From NCBI GenBank assembly GCA_037131245.1, contig JBAXRK010000001.1, positions 24,385-88,384 on the forward strand: a stretch of 64,000 bases of DNA, written 5' to 3'. The notes below the pieces were generated by a model. That model was given only the letters and a program-made list of their open reading frames with translations. It had not been told where the DNA came from and made no database searches. The DNA is from Candidatus Omnitrophota bacterium. GTDB lineage: Bacteria; Omnitrophota; Gorgyraeia; Zapsychrales; Fredricksoniimonadaceae. The position numbers were made by a program, and so were the translations under genes. Below, one piece after another: positions 1-25,700 of this stretch; position 1 is the stretch's first letter, and every line of letters starts with the position of its first letter.

Positions 1-1745
1 GGATTAAAATCACGGGACTTCTTGATAAGGGCGAGCTTGTACGCCGCGCGGTCATTATAAAGAGCAGACAGTTCACGGACCACCATCAGGAATTGCCGGC
101 CGGTCTCCTGACGGGCACGGATGGAAGCCGCGTCATTATCGATACCAAAACCATCCACGCCAAAAAGCGTGCCCAACTTCTGCAGGAAGTCGGACAGGCC
201 GCCACGACGCGCCACGATCACAAAAGCGTGCAGGAGCGCCTGCTGGACATTCGCCAGCCCGCAGGGCTCATCGATCGAGAGCATGATACCGCCCACGCTG
301 CCTGAAGGGATCTGATCGCCGAGGTCAGCGTCAAAAGCCTTGATGAAGCGGAAGTTCGCCTTGAACTCTTCGCGCCCGGCCAACTCCTCAAGCTTTGCTT
401 CAACCCATTCGCCCACGATATCCAGTGCCTTGCCGGTGGCTTTGTCGCGCGCCACGTTCCCCAGGATCACCAGCTGAACGCGGGCGCCTTTGCCATCCAG
501 GTCGAGGCGCAGGAGCTGCTCAATAAGCGTCTCCCCGGTCTCTTCAGTCATCACCGTGAACAGGACATTCAAACCTTTCTGTTTCACGATACGGGTCACA
601 ATACCGAGAGTCAGATGGTTCGGGTTGGTATCATCAAGGCCAAGCTTTTTCTGCAGGGCGCGTTTGTTATGTTCCTTGAACAAAGCGGGGTCTTTATCAT
701 CCTGCGTAAAACCGTCGCGGGCCAGCGCCGAACGGGCGGCCGGCACGTAATTAGCCACGCGCAGGCCGCTATACACCGCGGCCAGTTTTTGCTCGTAAGA
801 CCTCAGCACGCCATCGAGGCCATAACCGCGCTCTTTGGTGAGCACTTCGGCCATGTTGCCCTTGCTCACAAAAACAACAGTATCGGAGTAGATGAAAGCG
901 CCTTTCATAAAATCATGCCGGCCGGCGATAGCGCCATCAGGGAAGGACGACCAGAATTCCAGGCCATTATTCCCGGTGGCATACTGCAGCTCAGGACGTA
1001 AATGGGTCAGCTTGAACAACTCCACCACACCCTGCGTCTTGCTCGTGCTATAGAAATTATGGATCGGGTCCTGATAGCCGCGATGGCGCGCCAGGACACC
1101 CAGGCCCAGGAGATGACGGACCAGTTGGCTATTGAGCGCGACTTTCATCTCTCCGGGGAAAATCCCCTGATATTCGAGGTTATGCGTGGTAAAGATCGAC
1201 GCCGGACGAGCACTGCTGAAAGCGTAAAGTTCACGCAGGAACACCGCGCCCAGGCCGGTCTGCCAATCATTGAAATGGTAAAGGTCGATCTTAACGTTGA
1301 GCCAGAACTTGAGCTCCACCGCCAGCCGCGGCAGCAGGACCGCTTCGAGATAGCCGCCAAGGGAATCCGGATGCGGCGCGGTGTAAAGATTGTTAAAGAG
1401 GTTGCCCGTCACATCAAGCGGCAGCAGGAAGGAACAACCCTGCTGTTCGAGGTACACCACCTTAAGCGGATAGCTGGCGTTGCCTGCCGGGACGGGGATG
1501 GTCATCAGGTCCACCGCGCCGCTCTGGGCGAAGAAAGCCTCGACCGAGTGGAAGCTCTTGAGCACGTCCGCCAGGAACAAAGGCTTCACCACCATGACCG
1601 CGTTACCAACCTCGGCCATCACCGGCGGCACATCGCCCATATACACATGCTGGCCGCCACCCGCGGTGGATTCACGCTTGAGCTCGCGGCCGGTCGACGG
1701 GATGATCACCGGGGATTCCATCGCGGCAAAGACCAAGGACAATTT
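1..1745 (-). other. Domain: glycogen/starch synthase (GlgA-type, GT5 GT-B)-like, running to the left edge of the window
   Basis: AGGGQHVYMGDVPPVMAEVGNAVMVVKPLF; IDLYHFNDWQTGLGAVFLRE; SIFTTHNLEYQGIFP; KGAFIYSDTVVFVSKGNMAEV; NKRALQKKLGLDD..LGIVTRIVKQKGLNVL; QLVILGN; GGIMLSIDEPCGLANVQQALLHAFVIVARRGGLSD. These are collinear with the GlgA motifs TGGLadV / hDWqt / T.HNl.yQG / sptya.E / nK..Lq..lGL..RL..QKG / q.v.LG.G / PS.fEPCGL.Q..a..yG..P.v...GGL.D. Confidence 0.8.
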
Positions 1746-4700
1746 TCCGGCGGCTTTCGCGCGGTCGATACGTTCCACCATGGCGCGGCGCGCGTAATAG
1801 GTCTGCCCCATGCGCCACTCGGGGTAACGCTTCAGAAGCTTGTCAAGGTCGGCCAGGAGCGTGTCGTCATTAAAGATCGACGACCACAGCACCGCGTGAA
1901 TAGCGTCAGCGCGGTAGGGCTCAATGATATGGTTGAATTCGTCTTCAATGATCTTCTCGAGGATGCGCGCGGGCACATTATTTGCCCAGGCGCTTAACTG
2001 CAGGACCGGGAAAGTCTGCGAACGATCAATGAAAGCGATGGGGCCCGCGCGCGGATGGATCTTCACCGGCAGGCCATCGGCCAAAGCGCCATTAAGGTTG
2101 ACCTTCGCCCTGTCACCCAGGCGAGCGAGGACATTCTTGACCGCGCTGGATAGCATTTTCTCGGTGCGGGCCGCTTCGCCTTCAAAACTTTCCACGCGCA
2201 CGCGGCCGGCGGTCAATGAGACCAGCAACTCGCCGTTGATATTTTCCGGATAGGCCGGGACGGTGAGCGGGAAGGTTTCCGGAATACCCACCTGCCTTAA
2301 ATAAGCCAACCGCGCAACGATCCGCGCCATCTCCCTATCATAAGAATTCCGCAGATCAGGGTTTGCCACACGTTCTTTTTGTACGGTCAAAATATTCCCG
2401 ATACTTCCCACCGCTTCAGCATAGATTTCCACAGCTTGTGCGGAGCCCTGCCCCCACTGAGCAGTCAATTGACTTTCAGCAGCCTCCAGAAGAAGCCGCC
2501 GTCCGACCGTAAGTCCGACAAACGCAAGATCAGTCTCACTAAACAAAGCCGCCACTTCATCCATGTTCAAGTCAAAAATATCATCTGTGCGTGCAAAAGA
2601 CTCAGGGAACATCCGTGCTACCACACGCAAATGCTCGGCCGTCATTCTCTGCAAACGGACGATCCAATCATGCATATCATTACGGATAATGCTATTGACC
2701 TCCGCCAGCGCCATCACACGCTCCATGGTCGGATAAGCGTTAAGAACGCCTGTGACCGTCTCCCGCTGATCACGCCATTGACCCAGACGCTCCAAGATGC
2801 CCGCTACAACCTCTTCGGACGGAACACCTCTTGCGGCAGCTGCCAGATCGATCAATTTCACCAGAGTAAGATCGTTATCACGGACCCTGCGATAATAATC
2901 AGCCGGGGCAATCTTTTCAGGGAATGCAGCATAAAAACGGCGAATGTGATACCAGTTAAGGCCAACCAGCTCCTCTCGAACATTCGCTATTCGGGCAAGC
3001 CGGGCAACACTGTCAAAGAATTTAACAACATCAACTTCCCCCGAAACACGTAGATCCTCATGATCAGTTTTGTACTGAGACGATTCCATCATGACACGGG
3101 CCGCCAACTCGGGAGCCGCCTTTTGGAACGCAACCCAATCACCAGCCTTAAGAACCTCCAATGCGCCTTCAACTGAACCAGCCTCCAGAACCAGAAGCAA
3201 CATTGCCTTGCGCTTCTCATAACGCAAATTCCTCTGTTCTAAAGGATAGCGCCTCCAAAAAGCCATTTCCCGGACCAAAGCAGCATAGCTAATACCCGCG
3301 GCATCATTTTCCCGGCGCAAATAAGCGTCCTGCGGCATCAAATAACGCGCATTAAATACATCCTGGTAACGGAACACAGTCGTCGACCAGAACAACGAAC
3401 GCTCAAGGGTCCGCATCAGCGGCCCGAGATTGTCCCCGCTTGGAACTCCAAAATTCGAAATAAAAACCTCCAGCTCTTTAATAAACGCCATCCGCTGCTG
3501 GTTAAAGAACTCAAACCCCTCCAAAGTCAAACCATTGAAAAACCCTTCGAGGTTATCCATATCTTCGGCGCGAACGGAGAATATGCGGTCTTTGATCCTC
3601 TTAACGGCCGCAGCAGACACAACAGCAGCTCCGCTGAACGAACCCGAAGGCCAATCCAATGCTGAAGATATGGCCTCCGATAATTCAAATGCTCTCCAGT
3701 AATAATCCAGCTGAAGATACGAATACTGTTTACGGGGTTTTCCAAACCAAACGCCATCAACATCATGGATCGTGTTCGGGTGATCCGATGTAAGGCGCTG
3801 GGGAGCCAATGTAACAGCTGCGACCTCGCTCCATATCGACCGTTGTAACTGGACGCTCTCAACGGGTTGCTCTCCAAGATAAACAGTCTTACGGCGCGCA
3901 TCAAATGTAACGATCCGGCCATCCCATCGGGACAGTACGTCCATGGCGTTAACAACCCCGACCAATGATGGAATATTTAACCAGGGCTCACGCGAAGCAA
4001 TGGCCGTATGGCAATTCATATCTCCGGCATCTGTGATGACCCCGCCGGCCCGCGTCAACGCATCATTCCAACGGTTAGTCGTTGAATGGACAACAAGAAC
4101 AACCCCCTGCCTGACCTGAGCATATCCCTCCCCGTCACGGATGATCTGCAGTGGACCGGTCACAGCACCGGAATTCGCATTGATCCCGTTTTCGAACATA
4201 ACCGCATCAACAAATATTCCGTCCCTTAAGGCGACCGTCTTGACCTCAATGAACTCTCCCGGATTCGAGCAAGTCAACGGCCTGGCCTGAACGATCCAAA
4301 GACAGCCGGTATTCTTCTCGAGAACAAACTCAACATCCACATGCCGCCCATTATCTTTCGAAAGCGAACGATACGCGTCCCTGATCTCCCTGACTAAAAA
4401 GCCCAACGCCAGGACCTCCTCAGGCTTGAGGACCGCCTCCTGCCGAGGCTGCTTGAGCTGAACCGTCTCCGTAAGGCCGGCAGAAAGCATTTGCGTCATC
4501 ACGGTTTTGGTCGCGATCCGTTCCTCAAGAATGAATTTCGCGTCCGGGCTCACCAGCCAGGTATCTGTCTGAGAATCACCGCCGACGACTGATTCTCCGA
4601 GCCCCAGGCCAGCCGTGATCCGCAAAGCCGGGCGAGCCGTTCCGGTCCCATCCATCGAACAAACAACGCCCGCCGCTGCGGCATCCCCAACCATCGCCTG

Positions 4701-7700
4701 AAGGACAACCGCCATAGCTCCCGCTTCCAGCGGAAGGCCGTTACGCAAACGATAAAGAACAAAACTTGGATCAAAGAAACTGGCCCAAACACTCACCACA
4801 GCTTGCCGCATGGCTGCCTCAGTCGTCACATGGAGTACCGATAAAGCCTGGCCGGCGCAAGAAAACTTTTCCCCGTCTTCAAACGTAGCGGAACTGCGAA
4901 CGGCCACATCATGACCCAGCATCCGCAGTGCAGCGGACAACCGTTCACGGACGGCTGAAGAAATACCAGCTCCGGCCACCAAAGATCTCAGCTTATCGGA
5001 GATCCCCTGAACCTCATCTGCTATGTCCGCGGATCTGCGCGGATCTGCGGCGGAAAATTGCTTGCCCAGGGCCGTCAACCTTGCCCATAAGGAACCAGCC
5101 TCGGGCAACCCGATGATCAGATCTTCAAACGCCTTGGCGCTCAATATCAATGTCTCAGGGACACGGAGCTTCCCTTCAGCGCTACCCTGGGCAACCATTG
5201 AATGAAGAACGCCCATGTTCTTCCCCTTGCCCCCGGCAACCTTAACATCAGCAACCCTGGGATCCGTCAGACTAAACAAATAATCATCCCGGCCAAAAGC
5301 CAATCTGAAATCCACATCAGCGGCCGGCGTAACATCAGCGAATGGCTGGTCCTCCAATCGAACGCCCCAATCGTGATCCTGTTTGACCTTTTCCACAAAT
5401 TCATTGAAGATCCGATCCCCCTGGCAGGAATGATTCGCGCACAATGACGGGATCACTTTCTCCCGCACCGAGCGGCTGGCATCCCAGAAATCCTTGAACT
5501 GAGCATGCTTGTACAAGATCCCGAACCTGAAATCCTGGCGGTCCGACTGTTCAAACCCGGGGAAAGCGTTATAAATACAGGGCAGGCCCATACCGACCGG
5601 GTTGACGAAAAGCTTGCGTATGCTTGCCCAGCAACGAGGGCCATTGCATCCCGGGAACACAGAATTCCCCTTGGTAAAATCATCCCACCTGACAAAAATG
5701 AAGAAATTCGAACCGGCATACTTCTTCTCGAGACGACGCAGATTCTCCAGGGCCTGAGCTTCCTGCTCTTTGGTCAATTCATACTTAATATCGAAACTCT
5801 CGTGCTTTAACCGGCGCACCTTGAGCCTGTCCACCCCAAGGCCAATGGCAAATTCCACCAACCGGTCGAACTGGTCATAATTGCTCTGCAAGATCAGCGG
5901 AGCGAACGAAATACTCGCGAGACGCGTCCGCTTGGGGTCAAGCAACTCAACGGTATTCTTGCCGATCGACGCATTATCCTGAACTTCATACCCGCGCTTG
6001 ATCAACTCGGCCTTCCTCGCCGTCAGCAAACGGACATGCTCTACCACCTTATCGAAAGCCTCAACATTCACTCCAGTCAGGCCCTTACTGGCGATGTACT
6101 GATCTTTATTGCCGAAGTCGAGGCTGATCTGCAGATCGTCAACGTGGGTTAAAAGAAAATCAAGGAACCTCTCCTGCGAGCCCTGGAACCTTGCCAGCAA
6201 TCTGGGATTGTTCAACTTAAACCCGGTCGTCACGAACCTGGTATTGAACCCCGCGGCACGGGCCTCTTTGAGAATATCGATCGAGAACTCTTCTTCCGTC
6301 GGCTCCAGGCCACCGGAGACGATCGCCCATTCCGCCTTTGCCGCACGTAAATCACGGAGGTACCCCCTGATCTTCAACTGCATTTCCCTGCTCTCTCTCA
6401 TCTTTTTAACTTCAGCCAGCAGGCACTTGAACGGCGCCCCATAGTCCTGGTCAAAATATCTCCCGCCGTGTTTGGTAAGATTCGGACAATACTGGCACCG
6501 TAATGAACACGCCAGGGAAGGATGGAATTCAATTTCCATCGGGAAAGGATTCCCGCCGGTAATGGCCGCCTGCCAAAGCGCCCGCTGTTTATTGAGGATC
6601 ATCTTGTAATTATCGTAGTAATAGGTCGGAGTCTCGATCTCGAAAGCAGACTGCAGATACTGCGAATGCCGGATTAACCCGTAAAAGCGCACCAAACCAT
6701 CAAGCTGTAATCCCAGGGTTGCGGCGATCTTTTGGGAAGACATGGTCATGCGGCGCATTAAAAGCCGTATCAACTGGCTCAGGGAAGCAGCATCCTGATC
6801 ACTCAGATCAACGGCAAACTCCCTAAGAATGGCCTCTTTCAAAACACGTGTTTCCGCCTCGTAAAGATCCTCGTCTTTTAAGCCCCGACTGCCGGTATGC
6901 CGCAGGAAATCTCCCCAACCCGCTTTAGAACCCGCGGGCCTGAGCAAAGAGCCCCGGACGAACGGCTGGGCCGCCAGCGCGATACCAAAGGCCAGGTCGT
7001 CTTTAACTTTTTCAACCGCCTCATTCGAAGCACGCTCAAAAAGCATGCAGGCGCCGCACTTGGCAGGCAGAATGCCCTGCGATCGACGGGCCCGAACCTC
7101 CGGCTTATTCCAATATTCCGTGAACGAGGCGTATTCAAAAATAGACCGATCTGCGTTAAGAACATAATCCTGACCGCACATCCGCTCCTGCCCCGGATGA
7201 GCCGTATAACAGCACGCAATGCCCGCACCATACGGATTGATGATCGTTTTATATTCGTCGCGCCAGCAACGTCCGGCCCGGACCTGTTCTGTGGTCCGCG
7301 CGTCTTTCGCAAAATCTTCAAAATTGATCCGGACCTTGAACGCCTGATCCATTTCATACTCGCGCCGGATCTCCTCCAGAACAACCGCCACCTGGGGATA
7401 AAGCACGGGATGCGGCTTCACCAGACTGGCCATCTCGTGCCTGATGGCGATCGCATCGACTCCCATATCCTTGAACCTCGATACGATCTCTTTCAGATGC
7501 GCGGCATTCTCATCGATAACAAGGAGCGCGATCTCAATGTGCACCCCCACTCCGCCCGACCGCCTTCTTGACCGGACCAGGCCGGCAATATTCCCCAGGA
7601 CCCTGTCATAGGAAGGATCCCCGGCCGGCAAGCCCTTGCTGCGGTTATAGGCCTCTGCGTATTCGGCTCCGGCGAAATCAAGGCTGACCCTCAACTTCGT

Positions 7701-10700
7701 CACATGCTGCCGGTAGAAATCATACATTTCCTCAAGTGGCGCCTCAACGATCGGATGCCCGTTGCCTGGCGCAATGCCCCGGCCATCCAGATTGACGCCA
7801 TTCGTATTAAGAATGACCTCCAATCCATTCTCATAAGCAGCCTTAATGATCTCCGTTGAAAGGCTGCTGGCTAAGGGTTCTTTCCCACCGGAAATAAAGA
7901 CCCGCTTTGTTCCGCCGGCAGCAAGCTCATGGATAAAACTCTGGATTTTCCCGATCTTTTCTTCCTTAGTCGATCGCGGGACCTGGGTAAAATAATTGAT
8001 CCCCGCATACCCCTGGCCGCGGCTATAACAATACTCACAGTCAAGATTGCACCACAGGGCAGGATGGAACTCGACTTCAACCGGGTATTTCTTTTCACCA
8101 TTAATAACAGCCAGCCAGAACTCCCGGTCATCTGTGCAAACAGACCCCAGAATATCCGCATACCGCGCAAAAGGCGAACGGAGAACCAGCGCGTCCTGAA
8201 TAAGCGGATTGGCCTGCATGTAGCGATAAATGCTCTCCAATTCTACACGGCTTAAACCCAGCTGTTCGCAGATCGCCTGACTGCGCACAAATGGGTCATT
8301 AAAAAGCATCTCAAAAACAGGCATGATCATTTCTCTGCGGACATCCGCCGACGTCAATGCCTGGATCTGCTGCGCATGGCCGGCCTGGTCTTTCTTGAGG
8401 ACTTCTGTCAACATGCCGATGAGCCTGTCAAGATTGGAATTCTCTAGCAAATCCATCACAACCGTCAAATTCCGTATATTCTCGGTGATCAGATCACTTT
8501 CGTAATGCGCCAAACTTGCATAATCCGTCTTCAATATCGCCTTAAGCGAAAGCACCGCGTCCTTCAATTCCCTGACCGTCGCCGCTTTCTGATCCCCTGC
8601 GTAACCTGAAGCCTTTAAGCGGCGCAGGAGCGTTTCAACTTTAGCCGTCACGCTCCGAATATCGTCGACGCCCGTGCGCGCGTTGAAAAGAGATCGAAAT
8701 TGTTTGCTGTTCAAAGCCAACAACCCTTCCACAAACGCAACCACCTCATTTGGATCAACAGGTTCAGCTGCCGCATACTCCAACTCTTTCTTTAGCCCGA
8801 ATGACTTGACCTTCGGAATACGGACCGCCAGCCAATCATTGCCGTTCTCATCATGTGCCGCCTCGGAGGCTGACATCAGCTCTAAAAATCTCTGATGTGT
8901 CAGGATCTCTCCCATACCACCCGAAAGATTAAAGACGCTTCTGCCGATCGGGTGCCATAACATTGACTCGTAGCCAAGATTAAAGACAACCACCGCCTGT
9001 TTGCCAAGGCCGCTGAGCAAATGGGCCGTTCCCGTATCAAATACCACTCCCATGTCAACCGCACTCAACAGCGCAATATGGGACCCCAATGACATCTGGG
9101 GGATCACCAGGATCTCATTCGCCCCTTCCTCGCCTAATGACCGCTTGATGGACGCGACAGCGGCCCTCGTCTGTTCAATGTCATCAGCATTCTCGCCGCT
9201 GTTAACCAAAACATACGCGCTTCTCTTTGCTGCCAATAATGCCATGAACTTGATAGAATCCTGCTGCGACCAGTTCTTCGCCCCCTTGCGTGATCCGCAA
9301 TGCGGATCAAAATAGATCACGGGCTTAACAAACCGGCCTTCCGCCGGGTTATACGCGCAGCCCAGGTCCCTGATCGTCCTGATCGCCCACTCACGCTCTG
9401 CCTCGCTGACAGAGATCTTCGGTTCAACATCGGTCATCTGGACGCCAAGGCCGCGAATGCTGCTCACCGTGATCTTCCAGGCGTTAAGCCTCTGCTCACC
9501 ATGATTATTAAACACATACTTGCCGTCCGCATTGCCATCCTGGTTCCTGTAGTCATAAAAAGACCCGATAGGCTCATAAGGATTCAACTCATACAACGGC
9601 GGCCGGAAACGATAATAAAGATAATACCCTTTTGATCCGCTCTGTTGATCCCGAAGCTTACGCGACAATTCTTCCTCATTCTCAATATCGATCACCAGAT
9701 CATACGGCCCGTTCGTATCAGCCGCGGGATCGATGCCGCCGGCCTTATACAGGTCCGGGTAATTGGAGAAAACCCTGATCTGCGCTTGCGGGAACATTGT
9801 TTTCAGATGGGCGAACATGCCGAAATACATATTCACCCCCATCCGGGTCGCCGTTCCATTCTTCTTGACGATCAAAATGTGACGGACACTGTCCTTATCC
9901 TGAATATGCGCCAAAGGCTCGTAGCAAACCTGGTTCCTGATCGCCTCACCAGCCAGCGGTACCATTTGACTGTGCCAGGTCGACCTGAAAAACCGGCCTC
10001 TGTACGGCATATGCGCGGGGAATTTTTTCCGGGCGACGACCATCAGTTGCAATTTCTCAAGAGCCAGCGTCCTCACACCAGGATCCTGATCATTCCTCCA
10101 TATGAAATCCAGCGTTTCCAGCACCTGCTCCTCATCGTTGCCCAAATAGTCGCCTATATGTTCGACAATGGAACGGCGCTTTGCCCTATCGACCCTGTGC
10201 AACAAGCTCAGCAGATATTCAAATCTACGGCCCTTATCGCTGAATACAGTGATCACCTGGTCGTAAAGCTCATGCACCGCCGGCGCGACATCGTCGGCAT
10301 GATAACCTCTGGCCAAGTCCTTTAATTCATGGGTCGTCAGGCCCTTGAGATCTGTCTCCCTATCGCGGTTCACGGCCAGCTCAACGGCGTGATAACCCAC
10401 ATAGATCGAAGCCAAAGGATATCCGGACTTAAGCCCCAGGCCTGAATGAGCTAGTACATTGGAATGACGGTTGTTGAAGACAATGGTCGGTGACTGATCA
10501 TTTTCCACGACAATGCTAAGGCGCAGGGACTTGCCTGAAGGAAGGGGCATCTCACGGGCAGCTTCGGCCATTGCCTCAAATCCGCTGACGAGGTTCCGCT
10601 TGAACACAAGATCGCTCAGCCGCCCGATCATCATCTCGCGCACCGCGGGAGGCGCTCTGACATCAACAAGATTCCTCAGGAAGACATCAGCCATGCCTTC

Positions 10701-13700
10701 CTCATCCATGGTCCAGATAGAATGAACATCGGCCATCGTAACAGCGAACATCCGTCCTTCATTAGCCGCCTTCTCCAGTGCCACATGTGTCTGGACGTCC
10801 TCGCTGACATCGCCTCTCGCAAGATTCTTGCCGTTGAACCTTTCCGTTAAACGGGTGATGATGCTTTCAAGCTGCGGCTCCCCGCGGGGTACGCCGGACT
10901 CGCCGACCAACCTGCGGAAAACACCCAATGTTATGCCGTTATACATCCCCTCATGAGCGCGGCACAACATGATCCCGGCGCGTTCAACATTGCCGATCTT
11001 CCGTTCACGCTTGAACGGCATATTCAGGAAACGCTCTACCGATCTCTCCTTAAGCTGATCCAAATATTCGGGATAATCATCGGTTACGGTCGTTCTGTTC
11101 TGGGGCTGGGGAAGAATATAAACCGCGTGCGGAGCGAAGATCGTCGCCGGCAAACATCCCATCTTCTCAACGTTATCCGATAACCAGAGAGCGGCTTCCG
11201 CCAATAGATCATTATCCCGGCTCTCAACCACAAAATAGGTGACCGGCAGATCCATCGTCACAATGCCGACCTTAAGATCAGGACGGTCGACCAGCCACTT
11301 CCGTGCGTGGCGCTCAATAGGATACTCCACATTATAAACATGAATATGCTGATGCTTCGCGTAACGGCCCGCCCCGAGATTTCCCCTCATTCCGGGAAAA
11401 TAGGTGTTGAAGATCCGCACCAGGGTCCTCATGGCCTCGAGATCGACACCTTCTTTATGTTCCTTGGCCACAATGAACATATTGTGCTCAAAGAACGGCT
11501 TCTCAGAAGCGAACAACCGGAACGGAACACCGAACATCTCCTGAAGATCAGCCAACATCAGCTCATCATGATTGCCCAGGATATCAATGCCGTAATTCTT
11601 AACGCAGAAAGGACATTTCCTGACTTCCGCAGGGGTCCTCGGATCAATGGGAGCGTAAGGCGTTTCCAATGCGGGGTTGATCTGTGCGATATAATCGCTA
11701 TTCTCAACATCCGAGGATGAATCAACACTACGGACCCTGATCTGCTCCGGCAGCCACAAAACTTTTCCCGATGCCACTAACTCGTCAAATTGTCTTAATA
11801 CACCCCTGTTAAAGTGATCGGGTTCGGTTTTCCCAGAAAGCAGGTCAACATAAGCCTGCCCGCCTCTGTTAAACCCGAACGTGTCGGAAACTTCGGCCAA
11901 CAGCAAGCGGGAAACAATGCCCTCTCCCAGATCAAGGGCCCGCCACTCTTTGACCTGTTCATATAACGCCGCGAACCGCTGCGGGGTCATGGGAGCTGTG
12001 ACCCTCGCCAGTGAAATGTGCAGCATCGACGCCTTGCGCCGTTCGTCCGCATAAACTTCTCCAAGCGCCTTCCTGACCTCAAAGATCGTTTCGCTATCAA
12101 CATGCCCCTCGGCAAACACCGTACCATCCGGCCCTAAATTGATCCCGCTGAAGCGATACTTGATCGACCTGTTCCCGATAGCCTCCAGAACCTTCTGGCG
12201 ATACGCCGCGGCGTATTTCGGATCCACACGCGGCGCATCCGCCTTAAGATCAGCCGTCGCCGTATCAAAGAACGGCAGGAAGAATGTGGTATGCAGGATC
12301 TCCCCCGGAGTATAGGTCAACTCCGGGAAACTGGCTTTTAACAGCGCCAGAACGCGGTCAAGCTGGCTGCGCGTCATTTCAGGGAACTCGGTCAGCGGCA
12401 CAATAGAGCTGATACAAAAAATGCCCTTGTTAGGCTGCATCGGCTTCGGCGCGCGCCCTTCAGCGACCATGTCGCCGGTGGCCTGCCAAACATTCTGATA
12501 TGCGCTCTCTAGTGTTTCGCGGGATGTGACAGGAATTCTTTTTACCTGAACGCTCGCCTTGACAAAAATGATCGACGCCAGATCGCGCCCGTCATCCGAA
12601 GCAAGAGCACTATCGCTTCCCGCTCTGGGCCGGGCAATAATGGTCGGCAAACCCACAACATGCTGCTGCGCATCGGCACTAGCCCCTAAAAGGACCGCCT
12701 CGGTCAAACCGCGCTCAACCGCTATGGCCGCCACATCCTTGACCATGGCCTCACCAGCCTTATCGTCTGCCCCGCTCCGTTTAAGCGTCATAAATACCAC
12801 ACGACCCTGGGCGTCCTTCCCAACGATAGAGATACCTGCTCTCATAAAGAACGGATCCCAATTGACCCCGTTAGGCCCGGTCGGAGGCTGCTCTTTCACA
12901 ACGCTACAACTCACATCAACCCCATTACGGACAAGCACAACACCGGCGACCGCAACACGTATATCGCTAATGTTTGTCTTAGAAATATTCTTCTCTACAA
13001 GAATGTCTTTGATCCCCGCAACCGGACCATCGACCACAAAGAATGAAAACGTACCTGTGAGAAGCTGAAGGGTTTCCTGCCTGATGCCGGGCGCGGTCTT
13101 CATCAGCAGCTGACCGTTACGAATAAGCATCGTATGCCCTTCCCAATAGTTCCCCTGATGTCCGTTGATAGCGAAGATCGCCCCGGTCTCTTTAACAAAA
13201 GCCCTAACGGTCTTACCGGGGAACGGCACAAATTCCTTCTTAAACCTGGCAGCTAATTCTTCCGTCTGAGCATATTTGGAGAAATCATAAGCGCGGCCTT
13301 TGTCTTCTATATAAACGTCAAATGCCTGGCCCGGATTAAAGACCACTTCACGTCCACTGACCGTACGACCAGCAGCATGGTAATCAATGCCTGTCACCTG
13401 CATACCGGCGATCGTTTCGCTGGCCGCAACAGTAAGCGCCGGAACGATCGTCTTATCCGCTAACTTTCCTCCGATGATGACCCGCAGTTTATTGACCGTG
13501 GCCGGAACATGGCTGATATCAAGATGGATCGTATGCGGGCCAACGGCAACATTCTCAACAAGGACTGGCATGACGTTGCCGGACTCATCAAGAAGCTCGA
13601 TCTTTAATAGATTGTCTTTCAGCGCTTTAAGGACCGCATCACGAGCGATGTTAAACAGGTATTCGGGGACAGGGATCTCGGAAAATTGCAGTTCAACCAC

Positions 13701-16700
13701 ATCGTTACGGCGCAACGGCGGCGCATTCGCGTCAGGCAATTTCTTCAGGGCTTCCTGGACAAACAGCTCTCCAGCTCCGAACGCGATCGCTTCTTTGTAC
13801 TCCTTGATCTGCTGCTTGATCGCGTCCACTGTCAGGGCGTTCATCCCGACCGCGGCTACGAGCTTTTCAGGCATGGCCAGCACACCGGCCACCTTGTTCT
13901 GGAAAATGCCGCCCGCCGGAATGATCACCAGTGAAGGATTGGCTTTGCGCAGCTCAGCGATCGAGCTGCCCTCGGCCTTCAGCGCTTCGGAAACCTTGCC
14001 CCAATGCTTGAGGACAACGCCGTCAACACCCGCCTGGACAGCCGAATTAATGGCTGTCAGGAATGTCGGCTGGGCGGCGGTGTCGATCTCGGCGATCATA
14101 ACCAGCGCGGGCAGTTCTTTACGCAACGCCAGCATCTCAGCCTGGGACGGAACAAAGTCGACTATGATCACAAAGCTCGCGCCTGCCGCGGCCGCGGCGC
14201 GGATATCCGCAAGACTGGCCGCGAAAAAGCCAACCGGCGCCGCGGCATTCTTCGCCCGAAGCGCCTTAAGCACATCCAGGCGGTCAACTGTCGGAATAAA
14301 TCCGGCAACAACCACCTCGTTCATCAAACTAATAATAAGCTCAGGCGACTGGCCAAAGTGGTTCTGCTTCTCTTTAAGTGTATGGCTGCCGACTTCGACG
14401 CGCTTGGCGTTAAACTCCGCCACAATGGCTTGTTTCTGTCCGACAATCTGCTGCGGCGTAACAACCCTGAACGCCACCGCATCAGCCGGAACAGGATCAA
14501 CATCAAAATGAATACTGGCAAAACGGATAGTGATATTGGCGGGATCGATCAGAATGGAGCTGCCGTTGGCACGCACTGCCTGCACAACCAATCGGCCTGA
14601 CCGCAGCGCGATACCGATCATTTCTTTAACAGTTTCCTGCGCAAAAACCGGCACACCGAACGAAGAGACCTCAAGGTCGGCCATGCCGGCAGGCCTGAAC
14701 GTTACCGCAGGAGGCGCCAAAGCTCGCGGCAAACGACTAAGGATACTCTCTCCCAACCGCTCCTCAGCGCTGGAAGCGGCAACAGCTTTCTTGTAAAAAT
14801 ATTCTTTGGCTTTCTCCGTAAGATTGCCGTTCACATCCTCAAGGGCCACAACAAAAGCCGGATCAAGCACATTCCATACTGCAGCGATAAGAATATCCCT
14901 GTTATTCGATGCCCGGGCGGCGCGAAGCTTTTCGCCAAAACTGTTGATGGTATTCTTTAAGACGGCTGACTTCGCGTTGTTAATGGCTTGCTGTTGCGCA
15001 TTCTTGTGCTTGATCTCAATAAAATCTAACAAAGCAACAGCCGCTTTGTCATCCTGGTTATCTTTTGAGTCAGAGATCGCCTGCAGCCAACCATGATGCT
15101 CAGCAACCATCCCGACCCTCAGCTGGCGGCCCGCGGCCGCTTTCATCGCCGCTTTTGCCGCGTCATTGGCTGCCGATAAGACCTGAACACGAACACTACG
15201 CAGCAAATTCAGTTTAGCCGGGACACTTATGATCGCCTGATAAGCATTAGCCTCTTTTGCGATGATCACATTTCTAGCCGTATCCGCGTTCGCTTTGGCC
15301 ACCGCGTCATACACCGCGACAGCTGTTTTCTCGTCGTTATTCTCACTCACATCCGACATCGCCTGCAACCAACCATGATGCTCGGCAATCAACCCGGCCC
15401 TCAACTGACGGCCCGCAGCCGCCTTGATCGCCGTCTTGGCCGCATCATTCGCCGCCAGAGCCACCTGAACACGAGCCTCGCGAATAATATTAACCTTCAC
15501 GACATCAGCAACGATCACAGCAATGGCATCCTTAGCGCCCTTATCAGCAACAACCTTCGCCGCATCAGCGTTCGCCTTGGCCACCGCTTCATACACCGCG
15601 ACTGCCACCTTCTCATCGTTATTCTCATTGACATCCGACATCGCCTGCAGCCAACCATGACGCTCGGCAACCAACCCGGCCCTCAACTGACGACCCGCAG
15701 CTACCTTGATCGCCATCTTCGCCGCATCATTCGCCGCCAGAGCCACCTGAACACGGGCCTCGCGAACGGCATTAACCTTCACAATATCCGCCACGATCAC
15801 AGCAATGGCATCTTTAGCGCCCTTATCAGCAATAACCTTCGCCGCATCAACGTTCGCCTTGGCCACCACTTCATACAGCGCGACAGCCGTCTTCTCGTCA
15901 TTATTCTCATTCACATCCGACATCGCCTGCAGCCACGCATGATGCTCAACAGCCATCCCGGCCCTCAACTGACGACCCGTGGCCACCTTGATCATCGTCT
16001 TGGCCGCATCATTCGCCGCCAGAGCCACCTGAACACGAGCCTCGCGAATAATATTAACCTTCACGACATCAGCAACGATCACAGCAATGGCATCCTTAGC
16101 GCCCTTATCAGCAACAACCTTCGCCGCATCAGCGTTCGCCTTGGCCACCGCTTCATACACCGCGACTGCCACCTTCTCATCGTTATTCTCATTGACATCC
16201 GACATCGCCTGCAGCCAACCATGACGCTCGGCAACCAACCCGGCCCTCAACTGACGACCCGCAGCTACCTTGATCGCCATCTTCGCCGCATCATTCGCCG
16301 CCAGAGCCACCTGAACACGGGCCTCGCGAACGGCATTAACCTTCACAATATCCGCCACGATCACAGCAATGGCATCTTTAGCGCCCTTATCAGCAATAAC
16401 CTTCGCCGCATCAACGTTCGCCTTGGCCACCACTTCATACAGCGCGACAGCCGTCTTCTCGTCATTATTCTCATTCACATCCGACATCGCCTGCAGCCAC
16501 GCATGATGCTCAACAGCCATCCCGGCCCTCAACTGACGACCCGTGGCCACCTTGATCATCGTCTTGGCCGCATCATTCGCCGCCAGCGCTACCTGAACAC
16601 GGGCAGCACGCACCGTATTGACGTTAACAACATCGCTCAGGATCACGGCCATGGCTGCTTTAGTATTACGCGCGCTTACTTCGCTGGCCTTCACCTCAAC

Positions 16701-19700
16701 ATGAGCCTTGACCGCATCAAGCAGACTGGCCACCGTCGAAACAACCTTCGGCATCTTGCGGCCATTCATAGTGATCATGGAACGACGATACGCAGAGATC
16801 GTATCAGCGCCGATCTTCTCTATAATGTCCCTCTTGATGCTGATCACGGAAACCGCCGGTAAAGCCTGCTGCGCGGCACGCAATGAACGGTACTCATTAA
16901 CGATCCTGTCAGCTGTCTGCGCAACAACTGAATCTAGCGTCTTGCGGGCATCAAGCTCCATAGCCCTGACCGCAGCATCCGCATCCATGGGCGCCACAAC
17001 AAGATCATGACCGGCCGGATCAACCGCCGCTCCGCCTTTCATCCACTCAACAAACGCAACCGCCTTGCCCCACAAACTAACAACCTTATAAACACTCCAC
17101 AACGCGACCGGCACTAACCAGACCAGATTAATGATCTTGAAAACAGTCATCGCCATGCCGCTAAGGCCCAGGATAAACGCGCTAACTGTCAAGGCATAGG
17201 TAACCAGGAAAGCGCCGAGCCCGACAACCAAAGCAATCTTGAACCCGGTCGTCCTCATAAACTTCGGGAGCAAATACGGATCACCCGTGAACTTTGCCCC
17301 CTCAACGCCTTTGGCGGGAATAAACTTGTAAACACCGTTATACAGATACTGCCGGTCTGAATGATGCAAGGACGCGTTCATATTACCCTGGTATCTCTTG
17401 AGCAGACCCTGAGTCCGGATAAGCTGCTGGATCTGATCCTGAACATTCACATCAAGAACATCTCCTTTTTCCTGAAGATCCTTGAGTTTTGTCGCAACCA
17501 CTTTAGCTAGTTTCCCGATATCATCCTTCACCATTAATTCATTGTTATCCAGAACCAATCCACCCATAAGGCCCTGCTCGGCGATATACTGCTGCAAGGC
17601 AAGGCGGAAATATTCCGTATCATTAATATCACCGACCTTCTTCTTAAGATCAGCCAGCAGAAGCTCATAGCTGTTCTTCTCTTCCGTCGGCTCCCACACA
17701 AAATATTCTTGGCTGTCACCGATCAAGAGCTTAATGGCTCGGTCGATCTTCCGGTACTCGCTCATGATCCGGCGGCTCTTGATCAGCTTCGTTCCGGCAA
17801 CAAACACCACGGCGGAAGCGGCCAGCAGAACGGAGACGACCGGGTAGAACCACAAGGCAACGACCGCTGTCAAAGTCAGAATAAGCTTGGCCACATTGGC
17901 CTTCTTATCGTTGCTCTTGAGCTCGTAATACCAATCCTTCGCCCCTCTCCACCAGGCATAAAGTGAATACAAGAGGACATCGACGATCTTAAGCCCCGCC
18001 GTTGCCACTTTGTTCCACGGCAACTTGCTATATTTATTATTCTCGTAGAATTTGCTGCCATACAAAACCCCGGGATTATAAACAGCCGGCCCGGCGATCC
18101 AGCTCACAACCTGGATGATATAAAAGCCAGCTGCCAGAAGAATGATCGGCTCCATAGGAATAAAGTACAGAATAAGCGGAAGCAAGGGAGCCGCCAATTT
18201 CACACCGAACCGGTCGGTCGGCACAACGCCCGGTTCTTCATAAAGCACTTTGTATGTGCGAGTGGCCTGCCACCCGGAACGGTCGGTCGGCGGGAATTTC
18301 GGCGTGCCGTGCAGCAATTCATCAAATATGGCTTTCACATAGTTCGGGATCAAGGACCCCATGAAGACGACCAGGCCAGGCTTCACGAACATGCGACGCA
18401 AAAGTTCAAGCAGACCGTAGGGTGAACCGTACAACTGGTTATAGTAATGGACCGCAGGAATGGTAATGGCATGCATAAAGAGGTAGCCGAAAGCAACCAT
18501 GATCGGTGCTAGCGGCAGTCCGTACCAGGAATCAACGTGAAAAACCATTAATGCGATAAAAAGAATGCTGGCAACCAAGCCGGGAAGTTTGCGCAGGAAG
18601 AAATGCGACAGGCCCAGGGTACCCAGTTTGATATGAACAGGACCGGGTGTCATCAAAGCGCGCTGCGCTTCCTTATCCATGAAGATCTCACCCACGTCGC
18701 CGCAATACTTATACTCAGGGACCTTGTGAGCCCCACGCATCCTGGTCTTATCCTGGATCATCTCGACAAATGAGCTATAGCGGATCTCGCCGCCTTCTGC
18801 CAGGATGCCTTCGCCCATGACCGAATCTTCCGCGGCGCGGCACAGCGGGCCGACACCGCCACGGCCAGAGCTAAAGTCACTTGAGTCGTAAAGTGCCGCC
18901 ATTTTGGCATTATGCGCCTCAGCCAGGCTCGCCACGGAATGACCGAAGAACACATCCAGGTCCATGGAATACTTGCCGTATGTCGTTAACGATCCAAGGA
19001 CATCGGTACCCATCTGAGCCGGATGCGTCCAGGTCGATTCCGCGTGGCCGCCGGCGCCGCTGGTAGGCGTCATCGTCTGAACGGTAGAGTACAGCGGGAA
19101 TAACTGTGCGGCTAAACTAGGATTTTGATCATACAAGGCAGTCACAAACGGCAAGAAATAGATCTCTTCGAACGGTATCTGGTTGGAAACGTCCTGGGCG
19201 ATCATATGGCGCGCCCCGATCATCATGGAGCCAAGCTCCATCCAGGCCGCGTCCTTGACCGGCATCAGAAAAGCACGGCCAGACGGATCAAGCAGGCGAA
19301 TATTCGGCACGCCCAAATCAGCATAAAGTTTAACCAGATCAGTATGCTTACCAGCGTCCGCACAGCCAAACGCCCCGGCCGGGATCACATTAAAAATGAA
19401 TTTGTCTGCCGCAAAACGAGCATAGGCCTCATCCACCTCTTGAATATATTTCTTCTCGTGGCTGCCTTCTGTGTATCCGCCTTCAGGTTCATTATTTTTA
19501 TACTGTTCATAGAGCGGATCTGGCAGGTAGTCCCGGGCGAACATTTGCATAACCTTCAGGTGACGCTTATTTTTTATAGCTAATCGCGTGATAGTATCAT
19601 CACGCGAAGTTATAAAACCAATCAGGTTCTTCTGTAAGTTATCTGTGCGGTCATAAGGTTTAAAGAATGTTGTAAAAAGCACATCGACCTGGCCTTTGGG

Positions 19701-22700
19701 CGCTTCCCAGAATATTTTAGCCTCGCCCTGAATGGAGGCAACCTTCAACTGGACCTCCTCTAAAGAATTGAAGGGCTTACCATTATTTTCCATCGCTGCC
19801 TTAACCCCTGTGAAGATCTTGTCAGCGTACGTCGCTACCGTTGCCGCAAGCGCGCCGGTCCGGAATTCAGGCATCGCGGCGGCCTCCCTAATGCGTTCCG
19901 CCAAGAGGCGCTTAATATCATCATCTGTCAATGTCTTTTGAGAGATCAGGGCGTAAGTATATTTAACATAAGCAGGGAACCGGCTCCCCAGAACATAATT
20001 GATCACGAATGGCAAAACGACCCGGACTAACTTCATAAAAGGCGGGAGATCTTTTATGCGATCCAGCTTACACTTTTCAACGAGGAAATTTTCCAATTCT
20101 TCGCGGGATGTCGCATTGTTAACCACATTGGGCAGGCACTCAACAACATCCTTCCATAGTCTTTCAAACGCCATGCCGGCCATAGTAGCCCAATACATGG
20201 TCCGCGGAATATCGGTGAAATGCTCATACGGGGTCAACCGGCCATCGGCTGTTTCAGGAATATCGCGATGATAAAACTTGTTCATGGCCTGCTTCAGACG
20301 ATGCATAGCCTCATGATTGATGCCCTCAAGGTCCTGAAGCGTAATGCCCTTCAAGGACTTCAGCTTGTTGTACTGCGCCTCGGAGATCGACTTGTAATCA
20401 TCCCTGGTCATGTCCTCAAGGAACTGCTCATAATACCTACGGGCCGCGCCCTTGTCGCCACCGGTAAAGTTAAACGAGAAATTGCGGACATGGCTTGTGT
20501 AAAGAACAGCGATGCGCAGGAGCCTGTAGATCGCATCCACGATCCACGGTGAAGCAAAGACCGCGCCTGTGATCCAGACGCCGGTAGCGATCGAGGCAAA
20601 ACCGCCGGATACCATCGTCACCGCTATAACTGTCAAGCCAAGGGCTATTGAAGTCCAGAAAACATATTTTCTACCTGAATTCAACGCGGCAACGAACATG
20701 CTGGCGAAGATCAAGACGACAACACCGTGGAGATGAAAAGAGGCTCCGAACAAGAGCGCCATTCCAACGCCAAACACGAACGCCGCGGCAGCTATCACTA
20801 ATTTTCCGGCTAAATGCCGCACGTATTGCCCCATACCGCCCATTTTCTGTTCGCCCAGCATCTTAAGCGACACATACAGATCCTCGATCGTACGGATCTG
20901 GTGTGTATTGATATCCAACGCCTTATCCTTCGCCACCCGATGCAATTGCAGATAGAATCCGGAAGAAGCGAAAAGAGCGCTGATCAGGATCGCCATGAAC
21001 AGCACGGGGATCGCAATAAGCCCTATAGAAACAGATCCGGTCGCCCCCAGCATGACCAACAGCTTCGGCAAAGACCAGAACATGGCCATCCAGGTCAGGA
21101 AACTGCCGACCCAAACTATATTGCGTAAAACCTTAGCCCAACTCTTTAAAGCGTTATTCATGTGCTCGATCGTCTTCTCATCGATGCCCAGAGAACGATT
21201 ACGGTCCTCAAGATAATTGGGCTTGGTTGCCAGATTCCAGACGAACTTCAGCACGCTGACATCTTCCGGAATGCTCCAAACTCGGCGGTCAAAGAACAAA
21301 GCAAAATAATTCCGGTACGCGCGGGTCAACTTGAGGTAATAGCTGGCCGGCTCGATCTTCTGCTCTTTCTGTTCAAGCTTGATCTGCGGAAGGATCTTGC
21401 TATCAACGAGCTCCTGAGTAAAAGCCACACGGAAAAGATGCATTTTATCATCTGAGAACATCGGCAATTTCATTGGTTTCGAGGCAGGCCATGCTGTTAA
21501 TTGCTCCATCCAAGCGTCGGCTCCTCCGATGGGCTGTAAACGGCGGTCCAATAATTGCAACCTTTCCTGCACATTGGCTAACCGCTGGTAGAACTCAGCA
21601 TCGGAAGGATCCCCCACGAAATCCAGTTCCGCCATCGCGGCCACCCGAACCTCCTCAATGCATTGCCTGGCCTTTATAAAATCATCGTGTTTCAAACGAA
21701 TATCTGTCTGATCCATCATCCTCAAGCTGATACGGTCGATCGTCGTATTGAGGATCATGCGAACATCAGGCACGGTCAGGCCCATGCCACGACGCAGATC
21801 GATCCCGCGCTTATACAGGCGGTCGAAATCGTCCGGCGTGAACTGGGGGCGGTTATTCGACCTCTTGGTCTTGATACCGCCACCGGTGTAACCCCAAACT
21901 GTATCTGATAAGATAGCGCCCCAGACCTGGTCCAGAGCAATGGCAACATCCCAGGCCTCAGCAACAACCCCTCTCTGTTTGCCCCGCATAACACTTCTGA
22001 CAAGCCTGGCCACAAAAGTCGGCCGGTTCACAAATACCCGCTGTTCAACCATCCGGCGAACAACATACTCTTCCAGAGAAATATACACCAGGCCGTCCTT
22101 GATCTTCTTGTGCTTGATCAAAACACCGGCATTCGGATCAGCAAATGTATCGCCGGCTTTCTGGTGCCTTAATTCCTGAATGCGTACACGGACATCATCA
22201 AGAATAGCCTCGCGCCTAGTCTGAACCTCATTGCGATGCATCGAGCGGGCGCCGATGATCTCCCCTAACGTGTTCGCCAGGTCAATATATTCAATCTTGT
22301 CAGAAGCTACGATCGACTTCAAAACTTCGCGGAATTTAGCGGAACTGATCGGACCGACACCTTGTTGATTGGCTTCGATCAGTTTGAGGATAATATTGAT
22401 CACTATACCCTTCAAAGCGGATGGTTCCGTTGAAGACTTCGGCTTGATCATGTTTAACAGGTAATCGGTTCCCGTAATAGGCATCACCAATGAAAGCCTT
22501 AAGGCGTCGATCTTCTTGAAATCCTCCGGCTCCAGAAGCTTTTGAACCTCCTTCAACCGTTCATCCACCATCTGCTTGGTAAAGAACTGATAATTATCAA
22601 AGATCGTGTTCAGCTCTGAAGCCGCAGCCCGCTCAATAGCCTTGATCATAAGGTCATGAGCAATAAAACCCTTGTTGTAAACCAGCTTGTTGTTCAGCCC

Positions 22701-25700
22701 GTCGCGAATACCGCCCACCAGTTCCTTAAGAACATTGAGAGTAAACCCGGGATATTCTTTGAACAGCATCGCCAATGTCCCGGACAGATCCTCGGGCATA
22801 CCCTTCGTGGCCTGCACGGCTTCCTCAGGAGTACGAGCATTTTCAATATTCGACAGAATGTTCAAGACTTCCTGCTTAAACAGCGCGGCATTCGCAGCAG
22901 GCGCCTCTTTAACGGGTGCGATCTTCTTCAGCAGGCCCACGCCGAAGAATCTTTTCATGGACTTCAGGCTGAACCAGCGCTTCGGATTAATGAACCCTAA
23001 GAAACCCAGAAGCGTAAGCGCTATCGTACCGATAACGGTAATCTCAATAACATCCTTCCTGTAATCCTTGATCGTTTTCAATTCCGGAAGGGCACGTCGA
23101 GCAACGGCTTTCTGCTCCTCAGTCAACGCCGCCCTCTGACTATTGCCAATGCCTGCTTCGCGAACAATATTGGCAACAATACTGTTTCTAAGGTCATCAC
23201 TGAGCAACACACTCTTAGGCATATACCAAGGCAGAAGATCCGCGCCCATTGTCTTGCCGATGAACCGTGAACCCTGAACATGAGCAAGGCGGCCATTGAT
23301 ATAGAGGCGATGCGGCACGCCGGCCCAATTCTCGTACCGCTGAGCCAGTTTCCCTGCTACGCCATCTTCATAATTTATTTCAAACACATAATACTGCCCG
23401 GGAGTCTCTGTCGGCTGCTGAATGTAATACGCCGATGGCCGAGCATCATTTACCAGCACGCCCTGCTTAAGGTTCTCTAGGCCCTTATGGCTAATGAACA
23501 TCCCGAAATAAGGCTCCTGCGACGGCGTCAAATAAACTTGTTTGTAATCCGTCACAGAGAAAGGATTCATCGCCTTTAACGCGTCTCTATAATCAAATGA
23601 GAAACTGGTGTGCTCATAGACGCGGTACGCCGAACCACCCCATGGATAATTTCCCTCATAGAGCGGATTCTCAGCCATCATCGGAATATTAAGGGTCATT
23701 GGCTGTAGATGCGTCAGCAATAACCCGTTCGCATCCTGACCGATGAACTCACTCTTCATGTTCGGGCCTTCCGCTGCCGCCACGTAGTTCGACAGGACAT
23801 CCTGGCCCTTTACATAATCAAAGATATACGAACCATTGCTCAGGTCCAGCGCCCCTAGGATCTTCTCCTCGGTCGTCATCAAACCCTGCTTTTCATCAGG
23901 GTAAACGCGCGAAACGAACAGGCGCGGATCGCCCGACGGAATGCCATTCGTACCCACCTTATCCTGCCACGAGAACGCCTTCTTCTGACGGCCTTGCGTG
24001 GAATCCACTTCCTTCTTCACTTCAAAGATCTTATTGCCGAAATTAACGCCCTTATTGCTCACCAGGGTGTTAAGCACGTCGTACAATCCCTGCAGGTCAC
24101 CCGACTTGGCTTTAATGTCATTGGCATGGCCGCGGATGATCCAGGAGGGTATCTCGCGGCTATCCATGATCTGTTTGATCTGGGCGGCAACATCTCGCGA
24201 CTCCATCCCGCGGATGCGCTCGCCGTATCCAAAAACCTGCCAATCGCCGTTGGTCGATGTCATATAAGCGATGGACGAATGGCTGGCAATACCCTGGCCC
24301 TTGAGCTCATCAAGATAATGATTGGCTTTCACCACGTCGCCAACGCGCTGAACAAAAACCCCATTCTCCAGGCGCCCGAAAGCCTGAGCGATCACATTGC
24401 CCTTTAGGTCCTTGACCTCGCGCACCGCGAATTCGACCATACGGCCGCGATACGGGAAGCTGACCTCGCGGTCGATCGTGATCCGCCCGTTATGGTAGAG
24501 CCGGCCGATATCCACCAGGGTCATCGGATAGGTGATCGTTGAACCATCAGCGTAGCGCAAATGGCTGGTCATGATCTTCAACAAACGGTTGCCGTTATCG
24601 TCAAGGACCCAAAGCTCTGAGCCATCCGCCAGGTCAAGCATTTTAGGCAGGTCATTATAAAAATTGACCACTTCAAGAGAGCGATGACGGTCGACGGAAG
24701 AAAGCACTCTTTGGGACTTATCCTTGATCTCAGTGGTATTCACACCCGTGAAATGATCAGCCTTGTCCGCCTTGTTACGGACATCCCCCGCCAGGCGGTA
24801 CACCTGGGCCAGCACCACATCGGCGGCGTTCGTGTTCGCCGGGCCAAACGCGGTACGCAGCGCATCAGCGTAAGCCTTATAATCAAAATTGGTGGTCGCG
24901 CTCGAAACAGGCGCCTTCAAGGCCTTCTCTATATCCCTCACCATCGCCTCGACATCCACCACGGCCGGCTGGCGGGCGACCACAGCATTGATCGCGGCGA
25001 GCGTATCCTGCGGCACATCCAAGAGCGTCAGGCCTTTGGTCACAGAGCTGGAGAGAACAACATTCGTGTTATCCGCCATGGTCGTGGTCACATGCGTGGG
25101 CACCAGCGGGCCAAAGCCGTTATAATCAAACGTAACCGCGCGATCATTCTCCGCCTGATCCGTCGCCCTCTCGCCGATAAAGGGCAGGATGACACGTGAT
25201 TCTTTCACCGTCGCGCCGCTGAAAATATTGCTGAACGTGATCGTGTACCCCGACAGCTCGCGCTTGAAACCATTCATCCGGTAGGTCGGCTCCAGCGGCA
25301 GGTCGGAAGACATCACCAGCGTTTGTGCCGCCGCGTTCCCGATAAATTGATGTTGGCTCAGGTCAACCAGATATTTCTGGGCGCTAATGTTCGTATTCCC
25401 GATGATCTGCTGGTCGATGGTGCTAAACCACGCTACGCCGTTGGTCCTGGTCGACGGCAGAATGCTCAGCCAACTATTCGCCTTGCCTTCCGCGCCCAGG
25501 AGCACAATATCGGTGGCCTTGGCCGGCAGGTTCTTATAATTCACCTCAAAAGCCGCCAGCGTGGTCCAATGCGGGCGCAACTTGTACATATCCGGATAAA
25601 CCACCATGCGATGCGTCGCCTGCCACTGCGCCAGGTCCGCGACCGCGGCGGGATCGGTGAATTTGAACATCCCCTCACCCGTAGCCGCATTCGGCCAACC

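Follow-up and report, generated by a model that had tools for sequence, protein, structure and literature searches.

Giant genes of the Omnitrophota and the repeat array considered here

Giant proteins are known from the Omnitrophota, where those of the "Archaeovorin" type contain many transmembrane helices and count HEAT_2, GT5, Radical_SAM, PPDK_N, and peptidase domains among their commonest (West-Roberts et al. 2023, 10.1101/2023.11.21.568195). The same kind of very long protein has been termed "multi-enzyme metabolic clusters", and 80% of proteins of at least 10,000 amino acids (10 kAA) are singletons at 30% identity (Nielsen & Lui 2026, 10.64898/2026.06.07.730766). Strict identical tandems were found in 17% of the Omnitrophota genes of at least 10 kAA, where they take up small fractions of the coding sequence (CDS); such tandems are described as short and locally stable, and most repeat architecture as ancient (Nielsen & Lui 2026, 10.64898/2026.06.07.730766). 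Here we analyze a stretch of DNA of 64,000 nucleotides (nt), referred to as the window and numbered from its first letter, in which an array of 94-amino acid (aa) repeat units contains an exact tandem duplication and lies inside a single giant open reading frame (ORF).

The whole window is an internal piece of one giant gene on the minus strand, which is more than 21,332 codons long. The giant-length criteria in the two papers are at least 30,000 aa (>90 kb) or at least 10 kAA; the visible 21,332 codons exceed the second of these, and 30 kAA is beyond the reach of a 64-kb window. In this gene, which is of the giant Omnitrophota type, an array of four repeat units has probably grown to six through one out-of-register exchange between the units that we call U4 and U0.

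An exact duplication within six repeat units

Two segments of the window are identical at 591 of 591 positions with an offset of 564 nt (Table 1), and an exact repeat of this length cannot have arisen by chance in 64 kb. This is the single long exact run at that offset, and at an offset of 1128 nt there is no exact run of 30 nt or more. The two copies overlap by 27 nt, and since the run of identity is longer than the offset, they abut without a unique spacer. The exact tandem amounts to 1.15 kb of a CDS of more than 64 kb, or under 2%.

Tandem Repeats Finder, run over the whole window, returned one array (15287-16604; period 282, 4.7 copies, 88% matches, 0 indels), and in a repeat search six copies were found in register at intervals of exactly 282 nt. 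A profile made from the units delimits six of them, U0 to U5, at window positions 16709-15018 (aa 15764-16327 in the frame of the minus strand). With an iterative search a degenerate partial unit was recovered N-terminal of U0 and the last unit was found to reach aa 16348; the overall span including these degenerate parts is roughly 14955-16796. A first-pass annotation of this DNA had already recognized the perfect repeat, the period of exactly 282 nt with six 94-aa units, the divergence of the flanking units, and the in-frame character of the duplication, and all of these are borne out here, the last of them in the minus-strand frame. Its extent for the array, 14930-16830, agrees roughly with the six full units at 15018-16709 and their degenerate ends. 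It had also described the duplicated block as a pair of units, A and B, which is right as to the exact doubling of 564 nt but not as to its limits, since the block begins within a unit, at column 124 of U0, and ends at column 150 of U2. What it overlooked is the single giant minus-strand ORF, and this changes what the repeat belongs to.

Pairwise nucleotide identity is 100% between U1 and U3, 92.6% between U2 and U4, 89.7% between U1 and U4, and 87.9% between U1 and U2, while U0 is 71-79% and U5 59-62% identical to the other units. Divergence is greatest in the edge units U0 and U5, and similarity is highest among the central units; divergent edges around a similar center are the usual sign of arrays in which unequal exchange has recurred. 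U2 is a clean hybrid, with columns 1-150 identical to U4 and columns 124-282 (159 nt) identical to U0. The 27 nt in which these two stretches overlap are flanked by U0/U4 differences at columns 123 and 151, and U0 and U4 share no identical run that is longer; the same 27-mer recurs at 15432-15458 in U4 and at 16560-16586 in U0. The 591 nt of the exact repeat equal 564 plus 27, as unequal exchange predicts. The hybrid unit retains the invariant unit motif (…RVQVALAANDAAK…), and a longer identical core, of 35 nt, is shared by U1 and U4.

The coding strand of the array

The minus-strand frame read from 63998 to 3 comprises 21,332 codons with 0 stops, against 274-1580 in the other five. It runs out of the window on either side and for this reason does not figure in the list of ORFs. 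The gain of 564 nt corresponds to 188 codons and is in frame on this strand. Between units, the ratio of nonsynonymous to synonymous substitution rates (dN/dS) in the minus frame is 0.27-0.49, with an excess of third-position changes, and the 94-aa units are under purifying selection.

A different assignment would give the repeats to an ordinary-sized gene on the opposite strand, the plus-strand ORF at 15375-16862 (495 aa), which has an ATG start and is among the longest of the listed ORFs. Its between-unit dN/dS of 0.97-1.52 stands against the values for the minus frame, which is moreover open over the whole window, and we give this assignment virtually no chance of being correct and rejected the ORF as the repeat gene. 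The plus frame is a typical low-stop antisense shadow frame, with 274 stops versus 702-1580 in the remaining frames.

Plus-strand GC skew is negative in every 2-kb bin of the window (cumulative -3.6; GC 48-58%), so the coding, minus strand has more G than C along the whole of the giant gene. An RNA element in the window was also considered and was rejected, as the Rfam search of the window gave no match.

Proposed growth of the array from four units to six

We propose that the ancestral array had four units, today's U0, U1, U4, and U5. U4 would have paired with U0 at a shift of two units (564 nt), and the exchange would have resolved within the 27-nt stretch in which U0 and U4 have their longest identity, through either an unequal sister-chromatid crossover or template switching during replication. 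The product would be U0-U1-(U4 head/U0 tail)-U1-U4-U5, a protein longer by 188 aa with its frame and conserved unit motif untouched. An exchange between U4 and U0 is suggested because U2 is a hybrid of the two, U3 equals U1, and the 27-nt zone is their longest shared identity. The same three features lend good support to the view of the first-pass annotation that slippage or unequal recombination took place here very recently.

The absence of any difference in 564 nt sets an upper 95% bound of about 0.5% on the divergence of the two copies, and the next-youngest pair of units, U1 and U4, is 10.3% divergent. Because of this difference between 0/564 and 10.3%, the event would be at most about one-twentieth as old as the U1/U4 split, barring later conversion. 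Homologous recombination between repeats depends on repeat length, and since the array now carries a perfect direct repeat of 591 nt, recombination of this kind can be expected to add or remove further copies of the 564-nt block. Variability in the length of the array, which the first-pass annotation had raised, is a reasonable prediction, and the array is a spot where assembly copy number and strain-level length polymorphism of the giant protein merit attention.

Several points weigh against this reconstruction. The hybrid junction and the copy number are known from the assembled contig alone, and no related locus was found in any searched collection, so there is no comparison between strains. 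An identity of 27 nt is among the shortest that serve RecA-type recombination, and pairing of U1 with U4, with 35 nt shared, would be a better substrate, yet it was unused. The assignment to the Omnitrophota comes from 36%-identity matches and the domain repertoire, with no rRNA (ribosomal RNA) or marker gene present in the window. Predicted local distance difference test (pLDDT) scores from AlphaFold2, 48.6 for the 667-aa array modeled without an alignment and 43.2 for two units with a 5-row paralogue alignment, are low and the periodicity is ambiguous, and a helical spacer is a guess. Finally, a conversion tract of at least 564 nt on an array that already had six units leaves the same pattern as a duplication.

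The first of these points raises the question of the assembly, which the first-pass annotation had also put in the form of a misjudged copy number. The true array could have four units to which a false loop has been added, or the count of two copies could be wrong, or the six-unit form could be present in only part of the population. An exact repeat of 591 nt exceeds short reads, from which an assembler cannot count copies, and a false loop through the 27-nt zone of U0 and U4 would yield exactly the sequence seen, for which no independent copy was found among the genome, metagenome, and viral contigs searched. The hybrid junction is, however, bounded at columns 123 and 151, and any word of at least 29 nt that crosses it must occur in the reads. 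As the junction is covered only by words of this length, a false loop made purely in the assembly graph needs a word length k of 28 or less. With k at 35 or below, the 35-nt core of U1 and U4 would make tangles in the graph that tend to break the contig, whereas the contig is clean for 64 kb with one frame open over 21,332 codons. Given the behavior of de Bruijn assemblers, a false loop is incompatible either with long reads or with the final k values in common use (55 or more), and miscounting is likelier to understate the number of copies than to create a duplication. A duplication made by the graph is thus unlikely. A short-read assembler could have undercounted the 564-nt unit and four-unit alleles may coexist with the longer form; taking all versions of an assembly artefact together, we regard this explanation as unlikely, if the most serious competitor to a real exchange.

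Gene conversion is less probable again. Arrays of this kind do undergo conversion, and six units could already have been present when sequence from the U0 tail through U1 to the U2 head was copied over the stretch from the U2 tail through U3 to the U4 head, as a non-crossover tract of at least 564 nt in a pairing shifted by two units. The number of units would then have stayed the same. For a tract of this length the pattern at the ends, in which the identity run equals the offset plus the local pre-existing identity, is formally the same. Conversion, however, needs the same out-of-register pairing, a tract no shorter than the offset, and two extra ancestral units of which there is no trace, while after a single crossover U2 and U3 are accounted for base by base by the existing parents. 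We therefore consider conversion very unlikely, and less parsimonious than the single crossover between U4 and U0.

Domains and modules of the giant protein

More than 80% of the giant protein has no Pfam or NCBIfam match, and the NCBIfam search was concordant with the Pfam domain calls that are listed in Table 1 together with the parts of the array. No SecA-like match was found at E ≤0.01 in the 21,332 aa of the window, beyond which the gene extends, and no NUDIX, methyltransferase, or C39/S8 domains were detected within the window, outside which the N-terminus lies. Hydropathy analysis gave 23 Kyte-Doolittle peaks of at least 1.9 (19-aa window; a crude measure and not a TMHMM-type predictor), some of them in clusters, for example at aa 14314-14464 and aa 15135-15633.

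Table 1. Features of the 64-kb window. Positions are window coordinates; aa numbers refer to the giant minus-strand frame.
Feature	Position	Strand	Evidence and remarks
Stop-free frame	3..63998	-	0 stops; enzyme domains in frame; internal part of a gene >64 kb
U0	16709-16428	-	Profile and repeat search
U1	16427-16146	-	Profile and repeat search
U2	16145-15864	-	Profile and repeat search
U3	15863-15582	-	Profile and repeat search
U4	15581-15300	-	Profile and repeat search
U5	15299-15018	-	Profile and repeat search
Degenerate partial unit	16614..16796	-	aa 15735-15795; motif AYRRSMITMNGRKMPK, related to WLQAMSDVNENNDEK of the units
First copy of exact repeat (N-terminal in the protein)	15996..16586	-	U0 columns 124-282, all of U1, U2 columns 1-150
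Second copy of exact repeat	15432..16022	-	U2 tail (from column 124), all of U3, U4 head (to column 150)
Putative exchange zone in U2	15996..16022	-	Columns 124-150; CTGGCGGCGAATGATGCGGCCAAGACG on the coding strand, encodes LAANDAAKT
YNGVYKFIPA motif followed by two hydrophobic (transmembrane-like) helices	17070..17348	-	aa 15551-15643; hydropathy and alignment
Unnamed domain X, just C-terminal of the array	14217..14795	-	aa 16402-16594; self-BLAST, P0036 E 3e-15
Distant paralogous units of the same repeat family	43863..44840	-	aa ~6387-6712; motif R-Q-A-L-V-x-V-N-G-G-x-x-K-K
Peptidase_M23	63606..63878	-	aa 41-131, E 1.4e-12
HEAT_2 repeats	35154..35348	-	aa 9551-9615, E 4e-11
Radical_SAM and weak SPASM match	7047..8054	-	aa 18649-18786 and aa 18911-18984; domain search
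PPDK_N and PEP-utilizers	3894..5243	-	aa 19586-19911 and aa 19963-20035; domain search
Glyco_transf_5 (glycogen/starch synthase-like)	801..1640	-	aa 20787-21066, E 3e-24

The array is bordered on both sides by modules that occur elsewhere. About 90 aa upstream (N-terminal) of it is a two-helix module, with the pattern YNGVYKFIPAxG, which has no existing family name and is common to P0037-P0040 at 32-43% identity (E 1e-12 to 5e-6), these proteins or fragments being otherwise unrelated. One of them, P0039 (3,735 aa), is a gene fragment that takes up the whole of an 11.3-kb contig and has GT5 and GT1 at its end; the 94-aa repeat is absent from P0039 despite the shared membrane module. The array is closely followed, on its C-terminal side, by an unnamed domain, here called X, which has paralogues at aa 6871-6999 (43002-43388) and aa 16728-16849 (13452-13817). 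In a self-BLAST the array-adjacent copy is 48% identical to aa 6883-6999, the highest value between copies. The C-terminal part of P0036, a 410-aa protein whose N-terminus has a sub-threshold GT2-like match, also matches domain X. Repeat units followed by domain X appear to be a recurring super-module, because the distant units of the same family at aa ~6387-6712 likewise precede a copy of domain X.

Toward the C-terminal end of the frame, the order Radical_SAM, PPDK_N, PEP-utilizers (window 3894-8054, aa 18649-20035) recurs at 31% identity in P0003, a stand-alone gene of 1,621 aa (locus L003 2577-7442, ENA metagenome contig) whose neighbors on the contig are a GT4/GT1 gene on one side and, on the other, a gene that faintly matches NUDIX. 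The occurrence of this stand-alone gene in an operon-like cluster suggests a modular assembly of the giant ORF, which would string together modules that elsewhere are separate genes of an operon.

In a self-comparison the giant protein is mostly non-repetitive, apart from a few old internal paralogous segments. One old pair is aa 12830-13139 and aa 3510-3849 (window 25500-26500 and 52400-53500). A second pair, aa 18573-19013 and aa 19088-19553 (window 5300-8300), consists of segments of ~440 aa each in tandem, the first of which holds the Radical_SAM match. Identity in both pairs is 27-32%.

Composition and possible role of the array

The array is 25% Ala and 14% Val. Both AlphaFold2 models are all-helical, which at their pLDDT predicts a helical unit with low confidence. 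Period-2 hydrophobicity is strong over the array as a whole, but this signal is inflated by the coherent addition of near-identical units, and per unit it is marginal and ambiguous. Our guess is that the array serves as a scaffold or spacer of repeats leading from the membrane module to domain X, and that the duplication lengthened this spacer by two units. A bolder proposal is that the spacer is length-adjustable, with population variants of 4, 6, 8 or more units tuning the distance of domain X and the enzymes from the membrane module of a giant membrane-anchored multi-enzyme protein. We consider this a long shot.

Relatives of the gene and of the repeat

The best homologues of the PPDK-GT5 end are proteins from metagenome-assembled genomes (MAGs) of Candidatus Omnitrophica/Omnitrophota, P0002 and P0007. 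P0002, the C-terminal fragment of a gene cut by the end of its contig, aligns at E 7.5e-139 with 36% identity over 937 aa, well beyond the Pfam domains.

The 94-aa repeat belongs to no described family, with no homologue detectable in the protein collections searched (1.84-5.8 billion). In a word-indexed search of the repeat region against 5.8 billion proteins there was nothing at E ≤1e-3, and in an exhaustive HMMER search against 1.84 billion representatives the flanks were matched but 0 units were. A sequence profile search of the PDB with the repeat gave nothing meaningful. At the DNA level, the exact 35-mer core was absent from viral, genome (GTDB representatives), and metagenome contigs. 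Degenerate-pattern scans gave 0 confirmed relatives, both with the membrane-module alignment (A2) in genome and metagenome contigs and with the unit alignment (A1) in viral contigs, and when 25 kb were compared by megablast with plasmids and phages, no match appeared. Among the 5.8 billion proteins there was essentially no homologue of two domain-free stretches of 1.1-1.5 kaa (thousand aa); the longer, of 1,501 aa, had one marginal match.

Comparison with known giant proteins and repeat arrays

By its length, membrane segments, domain set, and nearest homologues, the gene fits the Archaeovorin-type or multi-enzyme giant class of the Omnitrophota as far as its sequence can be read. It resembles the Archaeovorin type in being an ORF of tens of kb with many hydrophobic segments and with HEAT_2, GT5, Radical_SAM, PPDK_N, and peptidase domains scattered in mostly unannotated sequence. 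Its nearest homologues likewise come from Omnitrophota MAGs, and it is an orphan, as are 80% of such proteins. Unlike most full-length Archaeovorins, it has no divergent SecA_DEAD (preprotein-binding) domain in the visible internal part (>21,332 aa); NUDIX and methyltransferase domains, which also belong to the repertoire of the class, were likewise not detected there, the peptidase here is an M23, and its 94-aa repeat is of no described family. In the class, a signal peptide and a C39 or S8 peptidase belong to the N-terminal region. The gene is a new, orphan addition to this recently described class. The duplication event itself is ordinary repeat dynamics, and the unusual part is its setting in a giant gene. 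That context is notable apart from the duplication, as a stop-free ORF of more than 64 kb that is mostly without homologues and has one module standing alone elsewhere in an operon-like cluster.

Another comparison is with the so-called periscope proteins, which are reportedly surface proteins with repeat arrays of variable length such as the Rib, SasG, and Aap stalks. In arrays of this type recombination adds or removes units and thereby alters the length of the protein; the units are many and near-identical, they are Ig-like beta domains, and the proteins are adhesins. The array described here shares with them the in-frame tandem units (~80-130 aa), the identity between units at the DNA level, and an adjacent anchor in the membrane or wall. 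It differs in that identity is limited to U1/U3 and the halves of U2, with other pairs at 59-93%, that the unit is predicted, with low confidence, to be helical, and that the host protein is a multi-enzyme giant and not an adhesin. If the adjustable spacer were real, it would amount to a "periscope"-like principle at work in a giant protein of the Omnitrophota, with a repeat family that lacks public homologues as its building material.

Like the strict tandems surveyed by Nielsen & Lui, the exact repeat is an identical copy over a small fraction of a giant CDS. Unlike in those tandems, the event, its parents, and its point of exchange can be reconstructed here, and this gives the duplication its value as a clean and datable case in which the sequence still displays both parents, the hybrid unit, and the 27-nt point of exchange. 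Whereas surveys regard most repeat architecture as ancient, a duplication of this kind would indicate that giant genes of this class are still growing by the in-frame gain of units.

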